Origin: Actinomycetes bacterium
Lineage (GTDB): Bacteria; Actinomycetota; Acidimicrobiia; Acidimicrobiales; RAAP-2
Direction of reading: 5' to 3'
Assembly (NCBI GenBank): GCA_021791635.1
Contig: JAJYWF010000002.1
Coordinates: 4,392 to 68,391, forward strand
DNA: 64,000 nt
How positions within the stretch are numbered: position 1 is the stretch's first letter; the number at the start of each line of letters is the position of its first letter. Both the position numbers and the translations under genes were made by a program. Shown here in pieces: positions 3,315 to 34,519 of this stretch. Below the pieces are notes generated by a model. It was not told the DNA's origin, made no database searches, and was given only the letters and a program-made list of their open reading frames with translations.

Positions 3315-7858
<4,544 letters not shown>

Positions 7859-15767: not shown

Positions 15768-15852
15768 GGAGGGATGGCAGAGCGGACGAATGCGCGGCTC
15801 TTGAAAAGCCGTGGGACTCCGGTTCCCGTGGGTTCGAATCCCACTCCCTCCG
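15768..15852 (+). tRNA. tRNA-Ser, anticodon TGA
   Basis: Hand-folded cloverleaf: acceptor GGAGGGA/TCCCTCC, anticodon stem CGGCT/AGCCG with loop CTTGAAA, long variable arm, and T arm GTGGG-TTCGAAT-CCCAC. No encoded CCA. Confidence 0.9.
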
Positions 15853-15935
15853 CTCTTATTGGGCGGCAGTCCGTGGGCGCCAGTCCGTGGACGGCGTTCA
15901 GGCCGGACCGACGCGCCGGCACCTGGGCTCGGCCG

Positions 15936-27150: not shown

Positions 27151-28839
<1,689 letters not shown>

Positions 28840-28866
28840 TTAGCACTCTCATTCACTGAGTGCTAA
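28840..28866. promoter_or_regulatory. CIRCE operator (HrcA binding site)
   Basis: TTAGCACTC-N9-GAGTGCTAA is a perfect match to the consensus, 70 nt upstream of the groEL ATG. Confidence 0.9.
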
Positions 28867-28977
28867 TAGCAAACCACGCCGGGAGGCCGAGCGCAACTGC
28901 ACCCCAGGCGACCTGGTCCGGTCGGTCACCCGGGGGGGCCTCGGGGCTTCGGATCCCCGGTGCGACCAGCGTCGCCT

Positions 28978-29253
28978 TCAGCCGCCTGCGACGGCCGGGA
29001 CGATGGACACCGTCTGCCCGTCGGTCACGGTCGTGGCCAGCCCGTCGAGGAACCGCACGTCCTCGTCGGCCACGAAGACGTTGACGAAGCGCCGCAGGCC
29101 GCCGTCGTCGTCGAAGAGCCTGGGGGCGAACCCGGGGTGGGCCCCGTCGAGAGCGTGCAGCACCTCTCCGACGGTGGACCCTTCGACCTGCACCTCGCCA
29201 GCGCCGGCGGTCAGGGTGCGCAGCTGGGTGGGAATGCGGACGGACACGGTCAT
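28978..29253 (-). CDS. ThiS/MoaD-family ubiquitin-like sulfur carrier (CysO/MetO-like), ends in GG
   Basis: 91 aa with C-terminal ...SIVPAVAGG immediately before the stop. AAGGAG lies 7 nt upstream of the ATG at 29253. Confidence 0.8.
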   Translation of the reverse strand: MTVSVRIPTQLRTLTAGAGEVQVEGSTVGEVLHALDGAHPGFAPRLFDDDGGLRRFVNVFVADEDVRFLDGLATTVTDGQTVSIVPAVAGG

Positions 29254-29314
29254 CTCGTTGGCTCCTTGCTGTGGGCTGGGCATGAGGTCGGGGGGACGTC
29301 GGGGCGGGGCGGGG

Positions 29315-30595
29315 TCATGCCGGAGGCGGGGTTGCGCCCCTGTCCTCGCTGCCCCCGAGATCGTCCACGACGGTGACGGCCTCGTCAAACGCACTCAGGG
29401 TCGGGGCGATGGTGACCGTCGGACCGGTCCCCGGAGAAAGCGCCTCGACCGTCTTCAGCCCGTGCCCGGTCACCAGAGCCACCACCCGTTCGTCGCGGCG
29501 TACCACCCCCGATGCCGCCAGCTTGGCCAGCGTGGCGATGGTCACCCCACCGGCAGTCTCGGCGAAGATCCCCTCGGTCCGGGCCAGGAGCCGGATCCCG
29601 GCTCGGATCTCGTCGTCGGTGACCGCGGCGCAGCCACCGCCCGAGTCGCGGATGGCGGACAGCGCGTACCAGCCGTCGGCCGGGTTCCCGATGGCCAACG
29701 ACTTGGCGATGGTCGAAGGCTTGACCGGGCGGATGGCGTCGGCCCCTTCGGCGAACGCCGTGGCCACCGGAGAGCACCCGGCCGCCTGGGCCCCCGAGAT
29801 CCGCACCGAAGGACGACGGTCCAGCAATCCCACCTCTCCCAGCTCGGCGAACCCCTTGGCCACCTTGGTGAGCTGGCTCCCCGAGGCGATGGGGACCACC
29901 ACGTGGTCCGGTGCCTCCCAGCCGAGCTGCTCGGCGACCTCGAAGGCCAGGGTCTTGGACCCTTCGGCGTAGTACGTGCGGATGTTCACGTTGACGAACG
30001 CCCAGGTCGGGCGCTCGCTGGTCAGCTCGGCACACAAGCGGTTGACGTCGTCGTAGGTTCCCTCGACCGACACCACGGTCCCGCCGTACACGGCGGTCAT
30101 CGTGACTTTGGCCGTCTCGAGGTCGTGGGGGATGAGGACCACCGACGTCATCCCGGCCCGGGCGGCGTGGGCCGCCACCGAGTTGGCCAGGTTCCCCGTC
30201 GACGCGCACGCCGCCACCTTGAAACCGAGTTGGCGGGCTTTGGTGAGAGCCACCGACACGACTCGGTCCTTGAACGACCCGGTCGGGTTGGCCGTGTCGT
30301 CCTTGATCCAGAGCTCTCCCAGGCCAAGCTCGGCCGCCAAGCGGTCGGCCCGGACCAGCGGGGTGAAGCCGGCACCCAGGTCGACCGGGGCGTCGTCGTC
30401 GACCGGGAGCAGGTCCCGGTAGCGCCAGATCGAACGGGGGCCCTCGGCGATGCGGCCCCTGCTGACCACTGCGGCGATTCCGCGGTAGTCGTAGTCGACC
30501 TCCAACGGGCCGAAGCAGTAGTCGCACACGTGGAGCGCTTCGGCCGGGAACTGGCGACCGCATTCCCGACAGCGCAGTCCCGTGACATGGTCCAT
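29315..30595 (-). CDS. Threonine-synthase-family PLP enzyme with an N-terminal Cys4 zinc ribbon (candidate O-phosphohomoserine-dependent homocysteine synthase, MetM-like)
   Basis: CRECG...CDYC ribbon and PLP lysine motif PTGSFKDR, 426 aa. It is preceded by a SAM riboswitch-like leader. Confidence 0.85.
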   Translation of the reverse strand: MDHVTGLRCRECGRQFPAEALHVCDYCFGPLEVDYDYRGIAAVVSRGRIAEGPRSIWRYRDLLPVDDDAPVDLGAGFTPLVRADRLAAELGLGELWIKDDTANPTGSFKDRVVSVALTKARQLGFKVAACASTGNLANSVAAHAARAGMTSVVLIPHDLETAKVTMTAVYGGTVVSVEGTYDDVNRLCAELTSERPTWAFVNVNIRTYYAEGSKTLAFEVAEQLGWEAPDHVVVPIASGSQLTKVAKGFAELGEVGLLDRRPSVRISGAQAAGCSPVATAFAEGADAIRPVKPSTIAKSLAIGNPADGWYALSAIRDSGGGCAAVTDDEIRAGIRLLARTEGIFAETAGGVTIATLAKLAASGVVRRDERVVALVTGHGLKTVEALSPGTGPTVTIAPTLSAFDEAVTVVDDLGGSEDRGATPPPA

Positions 30596-30599
30596 CTCC

Positions 30600-30730
30600 G
30601 TCCTCCTCATCGGTCGGGCGTTGGCACCTGTTGTCGGCGCCCACGGGACCACGGTGTGGTCGGGAAGCCGGCAATGGTTGCCGCGGCGTCACAGGGCCCG
30701 TCCCTCAGCCGCTCTGGATGATCCCTCCAT
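30600..30730 (-). promoter_or_regulatory. SAM-I-clan riboswitch (SAM-I or a SAM-IV / I-IV variant)
   Basis: The minus-strand leader reads AUCAUCCAGAGCGGCUGAGGGACGGGCCCUGUGACGCCGCGGCAACC...AGGUGCCAACGCC...GAUGAGGAGGACGGAG-AUG. This matches the conserved S-box core. The P1 3' strand abuts the SD. Confidence 0.8.
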
Positions 30731-30845
30731 GGTGGTCCACGCAAGCGGCGCGCGTCAATGCCCCCACGAGAGCCCCGGGGAAGACGCCGACGTCCCCGGA
30801 GGACACGGTTCTACCCGACCGGTCAAAATCGGCGATGATCGGACC

Positions 30846-31640
30846 ATGAGCGCCGGCCCCCGGACCTTCTCCCGCTCCACGATCGCCACCGAGTTCTCCA
30901 CCGGACGGCTGGTGGCGGCCAAGGGCCGGCGGTCGGTGACGGTGTGCATCCCGGCCCGAGACGAGGCCCGAACGGTTGGCGCCGTGGTGCGTGCGGTGGT
31001 CGAGCCCCACGTGGCCGCGGCCGGTGGATCCGGCCTGGTGGACGACGTGCTGGTGGTCGACGACGGCTCGACGGATGGCACCGCCGATGTGGCCCGGGCG
31101 GGCGGGGCCCGAGTGCTCACGGTGGCGCCGGAGGACGCCGGGGGCAAGGGCCGGGCCATGCAGTCCGGTCTGGCCGCCTCGGACGGCGACCTGGTGGTGT
31201 TCCTCGACGCCGACGTGGAGAACACGACCCCCGAGTTCGTCACCGGGCTCCTCGGGCCGTTGCTGGTGCTGGACGACGTCTGCCTGGTGAAGGGTTTCTA
31301 CGAGCGTCCCATCGGCGCCGACGCCAGCGGCGGTGGCCGGGTCACCGAGCTGATGGCCCGACCTCTCATCGAAGTCCTGTTCCCGGATCTGTCGGGTGTG
31401 CGCCAGCCGCTGGCCGGCGAGACCGCAGCCCCCCGCCAGGTCCTGGAGAAGCTGACCCTGGCCGGGGGGTACGGAGTGGAGCTGGGACTCTTGGTCGACG
31501 TGGCCCACCGCTTCGGCACCACGGCGATCGCCCAGGTCGACCTCGGCGTGCGTGTCCACCGGAACCGCCCGCTGGCCCAGCTCCGTCCCCAGGCGGTTGA
31601 CGTCCTTCGGGCCGCCCTGGACCGGGTAGAGCACCTCTGA
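30846..31640 (+). CDS. gpgS: Glucosyl-3-phosphoglycerate synthase (GT81)
   Basis: VVDDGSTDGT and FLDADV (DxD) motifs plus GYGVELGLL. ATG at 30846. Confidence 0.8.
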   Translation: MSAGPRTFSRSTIATEFSTGRLVAAKGRRSVTVCIPARDEARTVGAVVRAVVEPHVAAAGGSGLVDDVLVVDDGSTDGTADVARAGGARVLTVAPEDAGGKGRAMQSGLAASDGDLVVFLDADVENTTPEFVTGLLGPLLVLDDVCLVKGFYERPIGADASGGGRVTELMARPLIEVLFPDLSGVRQPLAGETAAPRQVLEKLTLAGGYGVELGLLVDVAHRFGTTAIAQVDLGVRVHRNRPLAQLRPQAVDVLRAALDRVEHL

Positions 31641-31688
31641 GCGGGGGAATGCGGGTGAGAGGAGTTCCGGGCCGGTAGCGTCGGTGGG

Positions 31689-33092
31689 ATGCCCGAGGTT
31701 GTCGTGGTCTCCAACCGGGGTCCCCGCTCGTTCCAGCTGGACCGTACCGGCCGGCCGGTGCCCGCCGGGGCCGCCGGCGGAGTCGCCGGCACGTTGGGCT
31801 CCCTGCTCCGTGGGAGCGACGCCACGTGGATCGCCGCGGCCATGAACCCGGCCGATCGGGCGGCGGCGGCGGCCGGAATGATGTCGGGAGAGGGGATCCG
31901 GGTGCTCACTGTCGAGCCCGAAGCGGACGTGTACCGCATGGCCTACGACATCGTGGCCAACTCCACGCTGTGGTACTGCCACCACCACCTGTTCGACCTG
32001 TCCCGCCGGCCCCGCCTCGACCGGCGCTGGCACGAGGCCTGGGAGGCCTTCGGGGAGCTCAACGTCCAGTTCGCCGACGCCGTGGGCGATGCCGCGCCGA
32101 CGGGCGCCGTCGTCCTGGTGCAGGACTACCACCTGGCGCTCACCGGCAGCCTCCTGGCCAAGTCCCGCCCCGATCTGCGCACCGTGCACTTCAGCCACAC
32201 GCCGTTCGCCGGGCCCGAAGCCCTGCGCTCCCTGCCGGAGGCGGTGACCTCGGAGCTGCTCGCAGGCATGGCCGGTTTCGGCGCCTGCGGGTTCCACACC
32301 TCACGGTGGGAAGCAGGATTCAGGTCGAACTTCGAAGACGGCGCCCTGGCCCGGGGATCCGAGCCCCCGCCCCCCCCACGCACCTTCGCCGCACCACTGG
32401 GACCGGACCTCGACGGTCTGGCCGCCGAGCTCGCCGCCCCCGAGACCCAGCGGGCCCGTCGTGAGCTCGACTCGTGGATCGGTGACCGTCAGCTCATCCT
32501 CAGAGTCGACCGGGTGGAGCTCTCGAAGAACCTCCTGCGGGGCTTCTGGGCCTACGAGGAGCTGATCGAGACCCGACCCGGGCTGCGGGGGAAAGCGGTC
32601 ATGCTGGCCCTGCTCTACCCATCGCGGCAGGGTCTGGCCGACTACCTGGCCTACCGCTCGGAGGTCGAGCACGTGGCCGCCCGGATCAACGACACCTGGG
32701 GCTCGCCCGACTGGACCCCGGTGGTGCTGGACGTGGCGGACGACCGGAGCCGGTCGTTGGCCGCCCTGACCCGCTACGACGCACTCTTGGTGAACCCGGT
32801 GCGCGACGGGATGAACCTGGTGGCCAAAGAGGGAGCCCTGGCGAACACGGTCGCGGGTTCGGTCGTTCTCTCGCGAGAAGCCGGTGCATGGGAGGAGCTG
32901 CGGCCGGCGGCCATCGGCATCAATCCGTTCGACGTGTCCGAGACGGCCGCGGCGCTGGACCTGGCACTGGCGATGGGTCCCCACGAGAGGGCCGAACGTT
33001 CAGAGACCTTGCGCCGGATCGTTCGAGGCCGCGGTGCCGCCGACTGGCTCGCCGACCAGTTAGACGCGGCGCGGGTCCACACCGCCGGCTGA
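31689..33092 (+). CDS. otsA: Trehalose-6-phosphate synthase-like GT20 glycosyltransferase
   Basis: VVVSNRGP N-terminus, VQDYHL and NPVRDGMNLVAKE. Confidence 0.8.
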   Translation: MPEVVVVSNRGPRSFQLDRTGRPVPAGAAGGVAGTLGSLLRGSDATWIAAAMNPADRAAAAAGMMSGEGIRVLTVEPEADVYRMAYDIVANSTLWYCHHHLFDLSRRPRLDRRWHEAWEAFGELNVQFADAVGDAAPTGAVVLVQDYHLALTGSLLAKSRPDLRTVHFSHTPFAGPEALRSLPEAVTSELLAGMAGFGACGFHTSRWEAGFRSNFEDGALARGSEPPPPPRTFAAPLGPDLDGLAAELAAPETQRARRELDSWIGDRQLILRVDRVELSKNLLRGFWAYEELIETRPGLRGKAVMLALLYPSRQGLADYLAYRSEVEHVAARINDTWGSPDWTPVVLDVADDRSRSLAALTRYDALLVNPVRDGMNLVAKEGALANTVAGSVVLSREAGAWEELRPAAIGINPFDVSETAAALDLALAMGPHERAERSETLRRIVRGRGAADWLADQLDAARVHTAG

Positions 33093-33098
33093 TCCCGG

Positions 33099-33896
33099 TC
33101 AGTCGGGCCGAGGTGAGGTCACGTCCGCCAGCCGTTGGAGAAGCCGCACGGCCCCGGCCGCACCTTCGACCACGACGTCGGCGGCGGCGGCCACCTCCGG
33201 CGGGCTCTCACCGTCGACCACGGCTACCCGGGCCACGGTCACCCCGCTGGCGGACATCGCCGCCAGCGCCTCGAAAGCCGGGAGGTCGCCCAGGTCGTCA
33301 CCGAAACAGGCCACCGGTGTGAAGCCGGCCCCGAGCCGGCTCACCACCCGGCCCTTGTCCACGTCGAGGGGCGGGCGGAGCTCCATCGACATGCGTCCGG
33401 GCTGGACCGCCAGGCCGGTTCGCTCCACCTCTTCGTCGCAGAACCGGGCAACCCAGGCCTGGGCGTCTGGCCTGGCCCGCCAGTGCAAGGTCACCGAGAG
33501 GCCCTTCATCTCCACGCCGACCCGGCGGGGGGCCCGGGCCCCGGCCCGGTCGGCCACGTCGGCCACGATCGGACCCCAGGCGGCGGCCTCTTCGGCGACC
33601 GCCAGCACCCCGTCGGGGTCGACCATCTCCATCCCGTAGAGACCGGCCAGATGCACACCGACGGGGTGGTCCAGCACCTGTCGGAGAAAGGCGGCCGGCC
33701 GGCCGGACACCACCGCCACCAGCCCCAGACCGGCAGCCAGGCGGGTGAGCACGGTCGGCACACCGGGCAGCGGTCGGGCATCGGAGGGATCGTCCACGAT
33801 CGCCGCCAGCGTGCCGTCGAAGTCGACGAACAGCGCGCTCTGTGAGGGGCGATCCCGCAGCGGGGCCAGGGCGGTCGGGAGGTCCACCGAGGCCAT
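33099..33896 (-). CDS. otsB: Trehalose-phosphatase (HAD)
   Basis: HAD motif I FVDFDGTLA and GDDLGD. ATG at 33896. Confidence 0.75.
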   Translation of the reverse strand: MASVDLPTALAPLRDRPSQSALFVDFDGTLAAIVDDPSDARPLPGVPTVLTRLAAGLGLVAVVSGRPAAFLRQVLDHPVGVHLAGLYGMEMVDPDGVLAVAEEAAAWGPIVADVADRAGARAPRRVGVEMKGLSVTLHWRARPDAQAWVARFCDEEVERTGLAVQPGRMSMELRPPLDVDKGRVVSRLGAGFTPVACFGDDLGDLPAFEALAAMSASGVTVARVAVVDGESPPEVAAAADVVVEGAAGAVRLLQRLADVTSPRPD

Positions 33897-33901
33897 CTCG
33901 C

Positions 33902-34519
33902 TCAGGTGCCGGCAGCTGTTGTGCCCGAGCCGGACGTGGCTCCCGAAGACGACGTTGTGCCCGAGGAAACCGCCGTCGTACTGGTCGTGGTCGTGACCTG
34001 TGAGGACAGGTCCGGCCCCACCACCACCACCACGCTCGCGGCTGTGGCCCCGGTGATACCCGACGACGCCGGCAGCGGCTGGACGGCCGTCGCCTTGACG
34101 CCCAGGGTCGTCGCCAGCTGCTCCGCCGGCTTCTGCTGGCCACTGGCGAAGTACACCACCGAAGCTGTGACCTTGGGGGCTGTCGTGGGTGTCAAGGTAG
34201 TCCACCCTGCGGACTTCAGCTTGTTGGTGAAGTAGCCGGCAGCTCCTGTCGTGGTGCTGCCGTTGGCCACGAGCACTTTCACGCTCGGGCTCGGTGCCGG
34301 CGCCGTCGTCGTGGTCGTATGGGGCGTCGTGGTGGTGGTCGTGGTGGACGGCGGAGCGGCGGTCCCACTTCCTCTCGAACTTCCGACCCGGATGAGGAGG
34401 ACACCGAGCACCACGGCCACCACGATCAACACCACGGCCCGGCCGACGGCGATCCGCTCGGGACCCGGCCCTCCACCCCCTTCCCCGATGCGCCCGTCAG
34501 GGTTCTTCGGCCCGTTCAC
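33902..34519 (-). CDS. Membrane-anchored LytR_C-domain protein with poly-Thr linkers
   Basis: TM segment VVLIVVAVVLGVLLI, then a LytR_C-like VKVLVANGSTTTGAAGYFTNKLKSAGW. Confidence 0.7.
   Translation of the reverse strand: MNGPKNPDGRIGEGGGGPGPERIAVGRAVVLIVVAVVLGVLLIRVGSSRGSGTAAPPSTTTTTTTPHTTTTTAPAPSPSVKVLVANGSTTTGAAGYFTNKLKSAGWTTLTPTTAPKVTASVVYFASGQQKPAEQLATTLGVKATAVQPLPASSGITGATAASVVVVVGPDLSSQVTTTTSTTAVSSGTTSSSGATSGSGTTAAGT

Follow-up and report, generated by a model that had tools for sequence, protein, structure and literature searches.

Synthesis of homocysteine by way of a protein thiocarboxylate has been described in Streptomyces albulus. As summarised in the GapMind 2026 preprint (bioRxiv 10.1101/2024.10.14.618325), the S. 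albulus pathway (Hasebe et al. 2024, Appl Environ Microbiol 90:e01247-24) comprises the sulfur carrier MetO, the hydrolase Mec, the sulfur ligase MoeZ and the homocysteine synthase MetM, and MetM, a homologue of the threonine synthase ThrC, is "often misannotated" as threonine synthase. The S. albulus metM gene has an upstream S-adenosylmethionine (SAM) riboswitch, and homologues with adjacent metO-like genes occur in cyanobacteria (PMC12172450). SAM-I riboswitches commonly have the ribosome-binding site (RBS) built into the 3' side of helix P1, and Actinobacteria are the group in which direct translation attenuation is found most often (PMC2258182). A group of Actinomycetota has very short or no P4 helix segments, and aptamers without P4, natural ones from Actinomycetota as well as designed ones, respond to SAM (PMC12714719). 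Here, we analyse a stretch of 64,000 nucleotides (nt) from an uncultured Actinomycetes bacterium (Acidimicrobiia; Acidimicrobiales; RAAP-2; assembly GCA_021791635.1, contig JAJYWF010000002.1, positions 4,392-68,391, forward strand), referred to as the window. We consider it likely, with good though not full confidence, that the window contains a two-gene methionine-biosynthesis operon under a SAM-I riboswitch, through which this bacterium makes homocysteine by a MetM/MetO-type route.

Several lines of evidence support this idea. The leader of the first gene belongs to the SAM-I family and its helices covary in relatives; the first gene encodes a ThrC-like enzyme and the second a small sulfur carrier ending in Gly-Gly (GG); and the two genes are linked across many phyla. 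A preliminary description of this DNA had proposed a SAM-controlled ThrC-like enzyme with a GG-terminated carrier, as in MetM/MetO, and the covariance-model match, the covariation, the gene pairing, ThiF-family neighbours in relatives and the literature all agree with it. All coordinates are window positions; the riboswitch and both operon genes are on the minus strand, on which 28800-31000 was read. Relatives were collected in two sets. A metagenome scan gave 80 close loci with enzymes 82-91% identical, and a search of GTDB species genomes with a profile of diverse homologues gave 80 distant loci (54-88% identity) from Acidimicrobiia, Actinomycetes, Solirubrobacterales, Chloroflexota, Nitrospirota, Cyanobacteria, Acidobacteria, Planctomycetia, Verrucomicrobiota and others, 40 of which were covered by Rfam scans.

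A SAM-I aptamer without P4

Rfam cmscan at gathering thresholds over the whole window gave two matches only, a tRNA and, as the sole riboswitch, RF00162 (SAM-I). The latter has a bit score of 56.7, above the gathering threshold of 44.4 (E 2e-10), and aligns the full model (positions 1-108) to 30604-30724 of the minus strand; a permissive rescan of 30500-30850 returned the same match and nothing else of note. The SAM-I core motifs quoted for this leader in the preliminary description are all found on the minus strand, with AUCAUCCAGAGCGGCUGAGGGACGGGCCCUGUGACGCCGCGGCAACC at about 30722-30676 and GGUGCCAA at 30628-30621, and clan competition in Rfam selects SAM-I. The observations that P4 is missing and P3 enlarged were likewise correct: in the Rfam alignment, 1 nt replaces the 18 consensus positions of P4, and the P3 loop has 38 nt compared to 7 in the consensus. 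The helices are listed in Table 1.

Covariation was assessed in 42 aligned P4-less leaders using a hand-written structure of 30 pairs, with 3' partners slid by 1-3 columns and 500 shuffles as controls. Standard pairs occupy 92.8% of cells, compared to 34-45% for the slid controls, and compensatory changes on both sides occur in 14 of the 30 pairs, a count reached by none of the shuffles. Covarying pairs are present in P2a (4 of 5), P2b (1), P3 (4) and P1 (2), the last changing from UCAUC/GAUGA to ACAUC/GAUGU. All five pairs of the pseudoknot are 100% paired in relatives and three of them covary (CGGG/CCCG, CAGG/CCUG, CGGC/GCCG, CUGG/CCAG), while the kink-turn (K-turn) nucleotides G20/A21 and G36/A37 and the core nucleotides are invariant. 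A C inserted in the loop pairs with a G two positions ahead of P1, which recalls a long-range SAM-I pair predicted by Barrick and Breaker (PMC2258182).

The missing P4 had led to the suggestion that the element might be a SAM-IV or SAM-I/IV variant. The absence of P4 stands but the class does not, because the K-turn and the pseudoknot between the P2 loop and J3 (PK-1) mark the element as SAM-I. By definition, SAM-I/IV riboswitches have neither the P2 internal loop nor PK-1, and SAM-IV riboswitches have a 3' P5 with PK-2 (PMC2864571, PMC6890682). With both the P2 internal loop, i.e., the K-turn, and PK-1 present, we rejected SAM-I/IV; SAM-IV was rejected on the K-turn and PK-1, the lack of a 3' P5/PK-2 and the outcome of clan competition. 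A 3' P5/PK-2 of the SAM-IV type is absent because the start codon lies just 11 nt past P1 and the P3 loop has no conserved pairing downstream; across 65 loci, P3 loops (14-60 nt) are not more complementary than expected to the 60 nt that open the coding sequence (mean z +0.26). Altogether, the element is a P4-less SAM-I riboswitch and falls in the P4-less Actinomycetota subgroup already described.

The association of SAM-I with this gene extends far beyond the window. RF00162 lies upstream of the homologous gene in 27 of the 40 distant loci scanned, at 51-91 bits, and no other member of the SAM clan was reported there. SAM-I precedes homologues in Acidimicrobiia, Actinomycetes, Solirubrobacterales, Chloroflexota, Acidobacteria and Methylacidiphilales; the scans reported no SAM riboswitch at cyanobacterial and Nitrospirota loci, in agreement with a Microcystis thrC that has none (PMC12172450). 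The length of the segment after GGUGCCAA splits the loci into a P4-containing group of 36-63 nt (Chloroflexota, Pseudonocardiales, Jatrophihabitans, Methylacidiphilales) and a P4-less group of 24-26 nt (Acidimicrobiia, several metagenome-assembled genomes (MAGs) labelled Actinomycetes, one Acidobacteria MAG, Solirubrobacterales). As in the window, P4 is absent in all close relatives. In the Solirubrobacterales loci (L122, L125, L136, L137 and L147, about 2333-2500), the P4-less aptamer has a longer P1 (CACAUC/GAUGUG) and is followed by a separate expression platform of ~70 nt; it does not abut the Shine-Dalgarno (SD) sequence, and the same minimal aptamer thus serves two platform designs.

The RNA might instead be a degenerate, non-functional remnant of a SAM-I riboswitch in which loss of P4 abolished binding, leaving the operon constitutive or under some other control. 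The missing P4, a P1 of just 5 bp and a score near the low end of the range among relatives fit such a remnant. However, the P4-less form has been kept with compensatory changes in several orders and phyla, its core nucleotides are invariant, and natural and designed aptamers of this kind respond to SAM, as cited above. We therefore regard a remnant as very improbable.

The metM-like enzyme, its carrier and their linkage

The first gene encodes, as had been stated for it, a 426-residue ThrC-family enzyme of pyridoxal phosphate (PLP) fold-type II with an N-terminal Cys4 ribbon. Its translation contains the PLP-lysine motif NPTGSFKDR and the cysteines C9, C12, C24 and C27 (CxxC...CxxC), and it matches Pfam PALP (E 1e-75) as well as threonine-synthase models. 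In 20 diverse homologues (42-57% identity), C9, C24, C27, K109, D110, R111, S132, G134 and N135 are invariant, and C12 (at least 90%) and T133 nearly so. The nearest solved structures are bacterial ThrCs (2zsj, 2d1f, 6cgq and 1uim; E 1e-58 to 3e-63); the alignments to them begin at residue ~53-56, and the Cys4 ribbon is thus without counterpart in solved ThrCs. The ribbon occupies residues 1-50 (30595-30446), and docking of the carrier is one conceivable role for it. Dehydratase and cysteate synthase were rejected as identities of the enzyme, their models scoring far under the cut-offs, and CysK/M models score far lower as well. Identical and near-identical enzymes are found in Acidimicrobiales MAGs, where all are named "threonine synthase".

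The second gene starts 61 nt past the enzyme open reading frame (ORF), and ORF, spacer and hidden Markov models (HMMs) agree with its earlier reading as a 91-residue ThiS/MoaD carrier ending in GG. The protein ends in ...VPAVAGG* and matches Pfam ThiS (E 1e-13), NCBIfam SAMP1 (63 bits) and MoaD. Its best solved relatives are Mycobacterium tuberculosis CysO (3dwg_C, E 7e-22, full length) and a ThiS/MoaD protein of Amycolatopsis (4n6e_B). The preliminary description was right about the Streptomyces MetM/MetO pathway and about its analogy to CysM/CysO, in line with the literature and with this kinship of the carrier. Like the carriers of most Acidimicrobiia, that of the window ends exactly at GG, so that no C-terminal trimming would be needed. 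By contrast, about 17 of 71 distant-set carriers have extra residues (1-4 or more) after GG, which implies proteolytic maturation of the Mec type in those loci (L099, L110, L113, L114, L118, L121, L128, L130, L139, L140, L142, L147, L149, L157, L158 and others).

Enzyme and carrier genes are closely linked. The enzyme gene is followed directly by a gene for a carrier ending in VPAVAGG* in 73 of the 74 evaluable close loci, and by a MetO-like gene in 71 of the 80 distant loci, and the pairing spans more than 10 phyla. Unlike in the window with its 61-nt spacer, the genes of most relatives share an ATGA overlap or leave almost no gap. With a more sensitive HMM search, eight distant loci still had no carrier within 2.5 kb, three of them in the class Actinomycetes. 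These three (L150, L152 and L155, from Pseudonocardiales, Jatrophihabitans and an Actinomycetota MAG) have a P4-containing SAM-I upstream and no MetO-like gene within 2.5 kb, and the carrier must accordingly be encoded elsewhere in their genomes.

Genes for activating enzymes also adjoin the pair. By Pfam, 6 of 73 downstream ORFs and 6 of 75 upstream ORFs immediately next to the pair encode a ThiF-family E1. Four Nitrospirota loci that were checked (L112, L116, L133 and L139) have the order thiF-metM-metO-thiF on one strand (about 1550-2490 and 4150-5150); two E1 paralogues around one carrier are unusual. Other homologues have as neighbours genes for CysK-like, sulfonate-binding SsuA, Tgt, amidohydrolase and OmpA/MotB-family proteins, and one neighbour (at L147) matched no family. 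This neighbour pattern is the one expected of a sulfur-carrier-dependent enzyme of sulfur-amino-acid metabolism, not of a housekeeping threonine synthase.

We suggest that the enzyme takes O-phosphohomoserine and, rather than adding water to give threonine, would carry out a gamma-replacement with the C-terminal thiocarboxylate of the carrier to give homocysteine. The carrier would be adenylated and sulfurated by a MoeZ-type E1, and release of the product may need a Mec-type hydrolase, both encoded elsewhere in the genome. Cyanobacterial homologues that have metO-like genes beside them share 57-60% identity with the enzyme, and a Microcystis homologue is reported to be 51.6% identical to S. 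albulus MetM (PMC12172450); a profile search from the Actinomycetes homologues gave only Pseudonocardiales and Jatrophihabitantaceae proteins and none from Streptomyces. Membership in the MetM family, which rests on context and on this indirect chain through the cyanobacterial homologues, is probable.

Several observations weigh against this interpretation of the locus. The enzyme passes threonine-synthase HMMs (TIGR00260, 298.5 bits against 167.1; NF006050, 306.4 against 303). These scores express family-level homology only, and threonine-synthase models are said to capture MetM too (GapMind 2026 preprint). In vitro, a cyanobacterial homologue beside a metO-like gene was reportedly mainly a threonine synthase/deaminase and not clearly a MetM (PMC12172450). 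Among the ~40 ORFs scanned across the window, there is no ThiF/MoeZ-type E1, no JAMM/Mec and no thrB (homoserine kinase), nor a rhodanese, hom, second thrC or other met gene; the lack of an E1-like activating enzyme nearby had been remarked on before and extends to the whole window. As for the RNA, P4-less aptamers are reported to bind SAM more weakly (PMC12714719). Moreover, when the leader and 40 nt of coding sequence were folded with the aptamer constrained, the SD was ~0.90 unpaired in the ensemble. A C-G pair that extends P1 into the SD across an A.G mismatch, formed by a C three positions ahead of UCAUC and the second G of the SD, is possible in 21 of the 42 relatives; it is absent in the window, which has a G at that position. 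Sequestration of the SD by base pairing is thus not supported for the window, and occlusion would have to be steric or tertiary.

The main rival, which we disfavour and hold to be unlikely, is that the enzyme is a true threonine synthase, regulated by SAM, for example, to partition O-phosphohomoserine, and that the carrier serves another pathway. Its appeal lies in the NCBIfam equivalog models scoring above their cut-offs, in nearest solved structures that are all ThrC, in database relatives that all bear this name and in the threonine-related activities of the Microcystis homologue (PMC12172450). However, a threonine synthase accounts poorly for a carrier gene placed directly downstream, often with an ATGA overlap, in the proportions of close and distant loci given above, for ThiF E1 genes as direct neighbours in Nitrospirota and for an N-terminal Cys4 ribbon that no solved ThrC has. 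In plants, threonine synthase is activated by SAM, and a gene switched off by SAM would be opposite to the known branch-point logic. The warning of the GapMind authors about MetM misannotated as ThrC points in the same direction. A cysteine synthase of the CysM/CysO type, using O-phosphoserine and the carrier thiocarboxylate and controlled by SAM as part of a general regulation of sulfur amino acids, is less probable still. The similarity of the carrier to M. tuberculosis CysO, the control of some cysteine-related genes by SAM-I in Firmicutes (PMC2258182) and the CysK-like genes beside a few homologues fit it, but within fold-type II the enzyme falls in the ThrC branch and not with CysK/CysM, with CysK/CysM and cysteate-synthase models far lower or under cut-off, and where a ThrC-like enzyme has been described by experiment as working with such a carrier, it is MetM, a homocysteine synthase. 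We therefore favor a MetM/MetO-type route to homocysteine as the function of the pair.

Leader architecture and proposed control

The same leader precedes the gene in every close locus with enough upstream sequence (~79 metagenomic relatives). Its 5' part has the form AUCAUCCAGAGC..CUGAGGGAC(C)GGGCCC...GACG..GCGGCAACC and is followed by a P3 arm of 14-60 variable nt; its 3' part reads GGUGCCAAUGCCCGA-N-CGAUGAGGAG(G)A, with the start codon about 5-8 nt on. In 61 of 77 relatives, a TTGAC-type -35 hexamer, a spacer of 17-19 nt and a TAnnAT-type -10 hexamer ending 6-7 nt ahead of AUCAUC can be recognised, and the window has putative counterparts of both (Table 1), although a strict sigma-70 scan of the leader region called no promoter. 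From this conserved spacing, the transcript probably starts at P1 or 1-2 nt ahead of it, so that the 5' untranslated region of ~125 nt would be the whole aptamer and nothing else.

At its 3' end, the aptamer runs straight into the translation signals. The 3' strand of P1 (GAUGA) is followed without a gap by GGAGGA, and the AUG (30595-30593) is 5 nt further on; the AGGAGG core overlaps the last P1 pair by 1 nt, and GAUGAGGAG(G)A does not vary among about 75 close relatives. A scan found no intrinsic terminator in the leader, and there is no room for one. In the preliminary description, translational OFF control had been proposed from the abutting P1 strand and SD. The abutment is confirmed and such control is plausible, but the SD is not base paired in the modelled bound state. 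We suggest direct translation attenuation acting mainly by stacking and steric exclusion. In this model, abundant SAM would lock P1; the SD, which begins at the last P1 pair, would stack on the folded aptamer, and the 30S subunit would be excluded, so that both the first gene and the carrier gene behind it would be translated less. Scarcity of SAM would open P1 and free the purine-rich GAUGAGGAGGA tract.

Two further properties of the leader were considered. The P3 insert (UUCCCGAC ... GUCCCGUG, 30670-30640) can pair with codons 4-11 of the enzyme gene (CACGGGAC ... GUCGGGAA, 30585-30560, minus strand) in two stretches of 8 bp. With this pairing, which disrupts the aptamer, the unconstrained minimum free energy is -75 kcal/mol, compared to -57 kcal/mol with the aptamer constrained. 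A conserved anti-aptamer of this kind was nevertheless rejected, with a duplex z of -1.6 in the window and a mean of +0.26 over 65 relatives, and the complementarity is probably due to chance. There is also an in-frame AUG inside the 3' strand of P1 (30610-30608, minus strand; AUG AGG AGG ACG GAG AUG), which is unlikely to be a start codon because the corresponding AUG is out of frame in most relatives.

We tentatively put forward a more far-reaching idea, which we think has a smaller chance of being right than of being wrong. The leader would be a complete platform-free riboswitch, with a transcript 5' end of ~125 nt, a P4-less three-way SAM-I aptamer and a 5-bp P1 resting on an unpaired SD, in which the 30S subunit is excluded sterically. 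The loss of P4 would tune this switch to a higher SAM threshold suiting a thiocarboxylate-dependent homocysteine route, which may predominate in Acidimicrobiia and in many of the uncultured phyla.

Table 1. Features of the leader and of the two operon genes, in window positions
Feature	Position	Strand	Basis
Putative -35 hexamer TTGACG	30753..30758	-	Conservation in relatives
Putative -10 hexamer CACCAT	30729..30734	-	Aligns with TACCAT/TACAAT/CACCAT of relatives at the same distance from P1
SAM-I aptamer, P4-less form	30604..30724	-	RF00162; covariation in 42 relatives
P1, 5 bp (UCAUC/GAUGA)	30721-30717 with 30611-30607	-	UCAUC/GAUGA pairing
P2a	30712-30708 with 30687-30683	-	Aptamer structure
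K-turn, UGA and GAC	P2a/P2b junction	-	Sequence read
P2b	30704-30702 with 30696-30694	-	Aptamer structure
Pseudoknot 5' strand CGGG, in P2b loop	30697..30700	-	Pairs with CCCG 30618-30615
P3, with 38-nt distal insert	30682-30623	-	Aptamer structure
J3/1	30622-30612	-	Aptamer structure
Pseudoknot 3' strand CCCG, in fused J3/4-J4/1; P4 normally inserted just 3'	30615..30618	-	Rfam alignment; covariation
SD of enzyme gene, GGAGGA	30601..30606	-	Sequence; directly abuts P1 3' strand
metM-like gene, 426 residues, putative MetO-thiocarboxylate-dependent homocysteine synthase	29315..30595	-	Translation, HMMs, context
SD of carrier gene, AAGGAG, in 61-nt spacer	29262..29267	-	Sequence
metO-like gene, 91 residues, ThiS/MoaD-fold sulfur carrier with C-terminal GG (start ATG 29253)	28978..29253	-	Translation, HMMs

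Surroundings of the locus and comparison with described systems

The metM-metO pair stands alone in the window. Downstream of it are a perfect CIRCE operator and groEL, and then hemQ. The operator, a target of HrcA (TTAGCACTC-N9-GAGTGCTAA), occupies 28840-28866, between the metO stop at 28978 and groEL (27151-28770, minus strand). In 11 related loci, too, groEL comes next downstream of the pair, and this synteny is thus conserved. On the other side lies a divergent compatible-solute cluster (30846-34496) with gpgS, encoding glucosyl-3-phosphoglycerate synthase (30846-31640, plus strand), an OtsA-like gene of glycosyltransferase family 20 (GT20; 31689-33092, plus strand) and a trehalose-phosphatase-like gene (33099-34496, minus strand); genes of GT2 and GT20 are upstream neighbours in many Acidimicrobiia relatives as well. 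The tRNA found by Rfam, the sole one in the window, is a tRNA-Ser (anticodon UGA) with a long variable arm (15768-15853, plus strand). Unrelated Rfam matches in the flanks of distant loci were PYLIS_3 beside an MttB-family gene in an Anaerolineae MAG (L119, 4716-4815) and a T-box leader in a Chloroflexi MAG (L143, 4205-4631).

The P4-less SAM-I subgroup and the SAM-controlled metM-metO route have both been described already; the example in an uncultured Acidimicrobiales lineage is new, and it does not overturn current understanding. Its consequence is in the first place a correction of annotation, as the gene in the window and hundreds of relatives named "threonine synthase" most likely make homocysteine by way of a protein thiocarboxylate. 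The riboswitch-controlled MetM/MetO route would thereby be extended from Streptomyces to Acidimicrobiia, and further to relatives in Solirubrobacterales, Chloroflexota, Acidobacteria and Verrucomicrobiota, which is of use when the metabolism of uncultured bacteria from soil and peat is reconstructed. The leader, P4-less and platform-free as it appears, offers a natural case of small size on which minimal translational riboswitches could be studied.

Among riboswitches, the element shares the core sequence, P1-P3, the K-turn and PK-1 with SAM-I (RF00162), the absence of P4 with the P4-less Actinomycetota subgroup (PMC12714719) and the RBS on the 3' side of P1 with actinobacterial SAM-I (PMC2258182). 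Canonical SAM-I riboswitches, such as that of Thermoanaerobacter tengcongensis metF, have a four-way junction, whereas the junction here is three-way; P1 is limited to 5 bp, and neither a terminator nor a separate platform is present. SAM-IV (RF00634) and SAM-I/IV (RF01725) belong to the same clan and share the logic of the ligand-binding core and a junction without P4; however, SAM-IV has a 3' P5, PK-2 and a different turn in P2, and SAM-I/IV is without the P2 internal loop and PK-1.

The enzyme shares ~350 aligned residues with canonical ThrC of Aquifex (2zsj) and M. tuberculosis (2d1f) at E 1e-59 to 1e-63, including the PLP-lysine motif and the STGN loop, and with these kept, O-phosphohomoserine is its likely substrate. 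It differs from them by an extra N-terminal Cys4 ribbon of ~50 residues, an obligate linkage to a sulfur carrier and a presumed SAM-dependent control. The M. tuberculosis system of CysO, CysM, Mec+ and MoeZ has a similar carrier and, presumably, the same donation of thiocarboxylate sulfur to a phosphorylated hydroxy-amino acid on a PLP enzyme of fold-type II. In the window, by contrast, the enzyme is of the ThrC type and not CysM, the presumed substrate is O-phosphohomoserine and not O-phosphoserine, the operon has no mec, and control would be by a riboswitch. The closest likeness is to metM-metO of S. albulus as described in the preprint and in PMC12172450: a ThrC-homologous enzyme, a small carrier of the ThiS/MoaD type and a SAM riboswitch upstream, with the E1 (MoeZ) and the hydrolase (Mec) as separate functions. 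The three Actinomycetes-class loci that we examined have no metO beside the metM homologue, and the host of the locus described here belongs to the class Acidimicrobiia, not Actinomycetes; its match to S. albulus is one of architecture and regulation.

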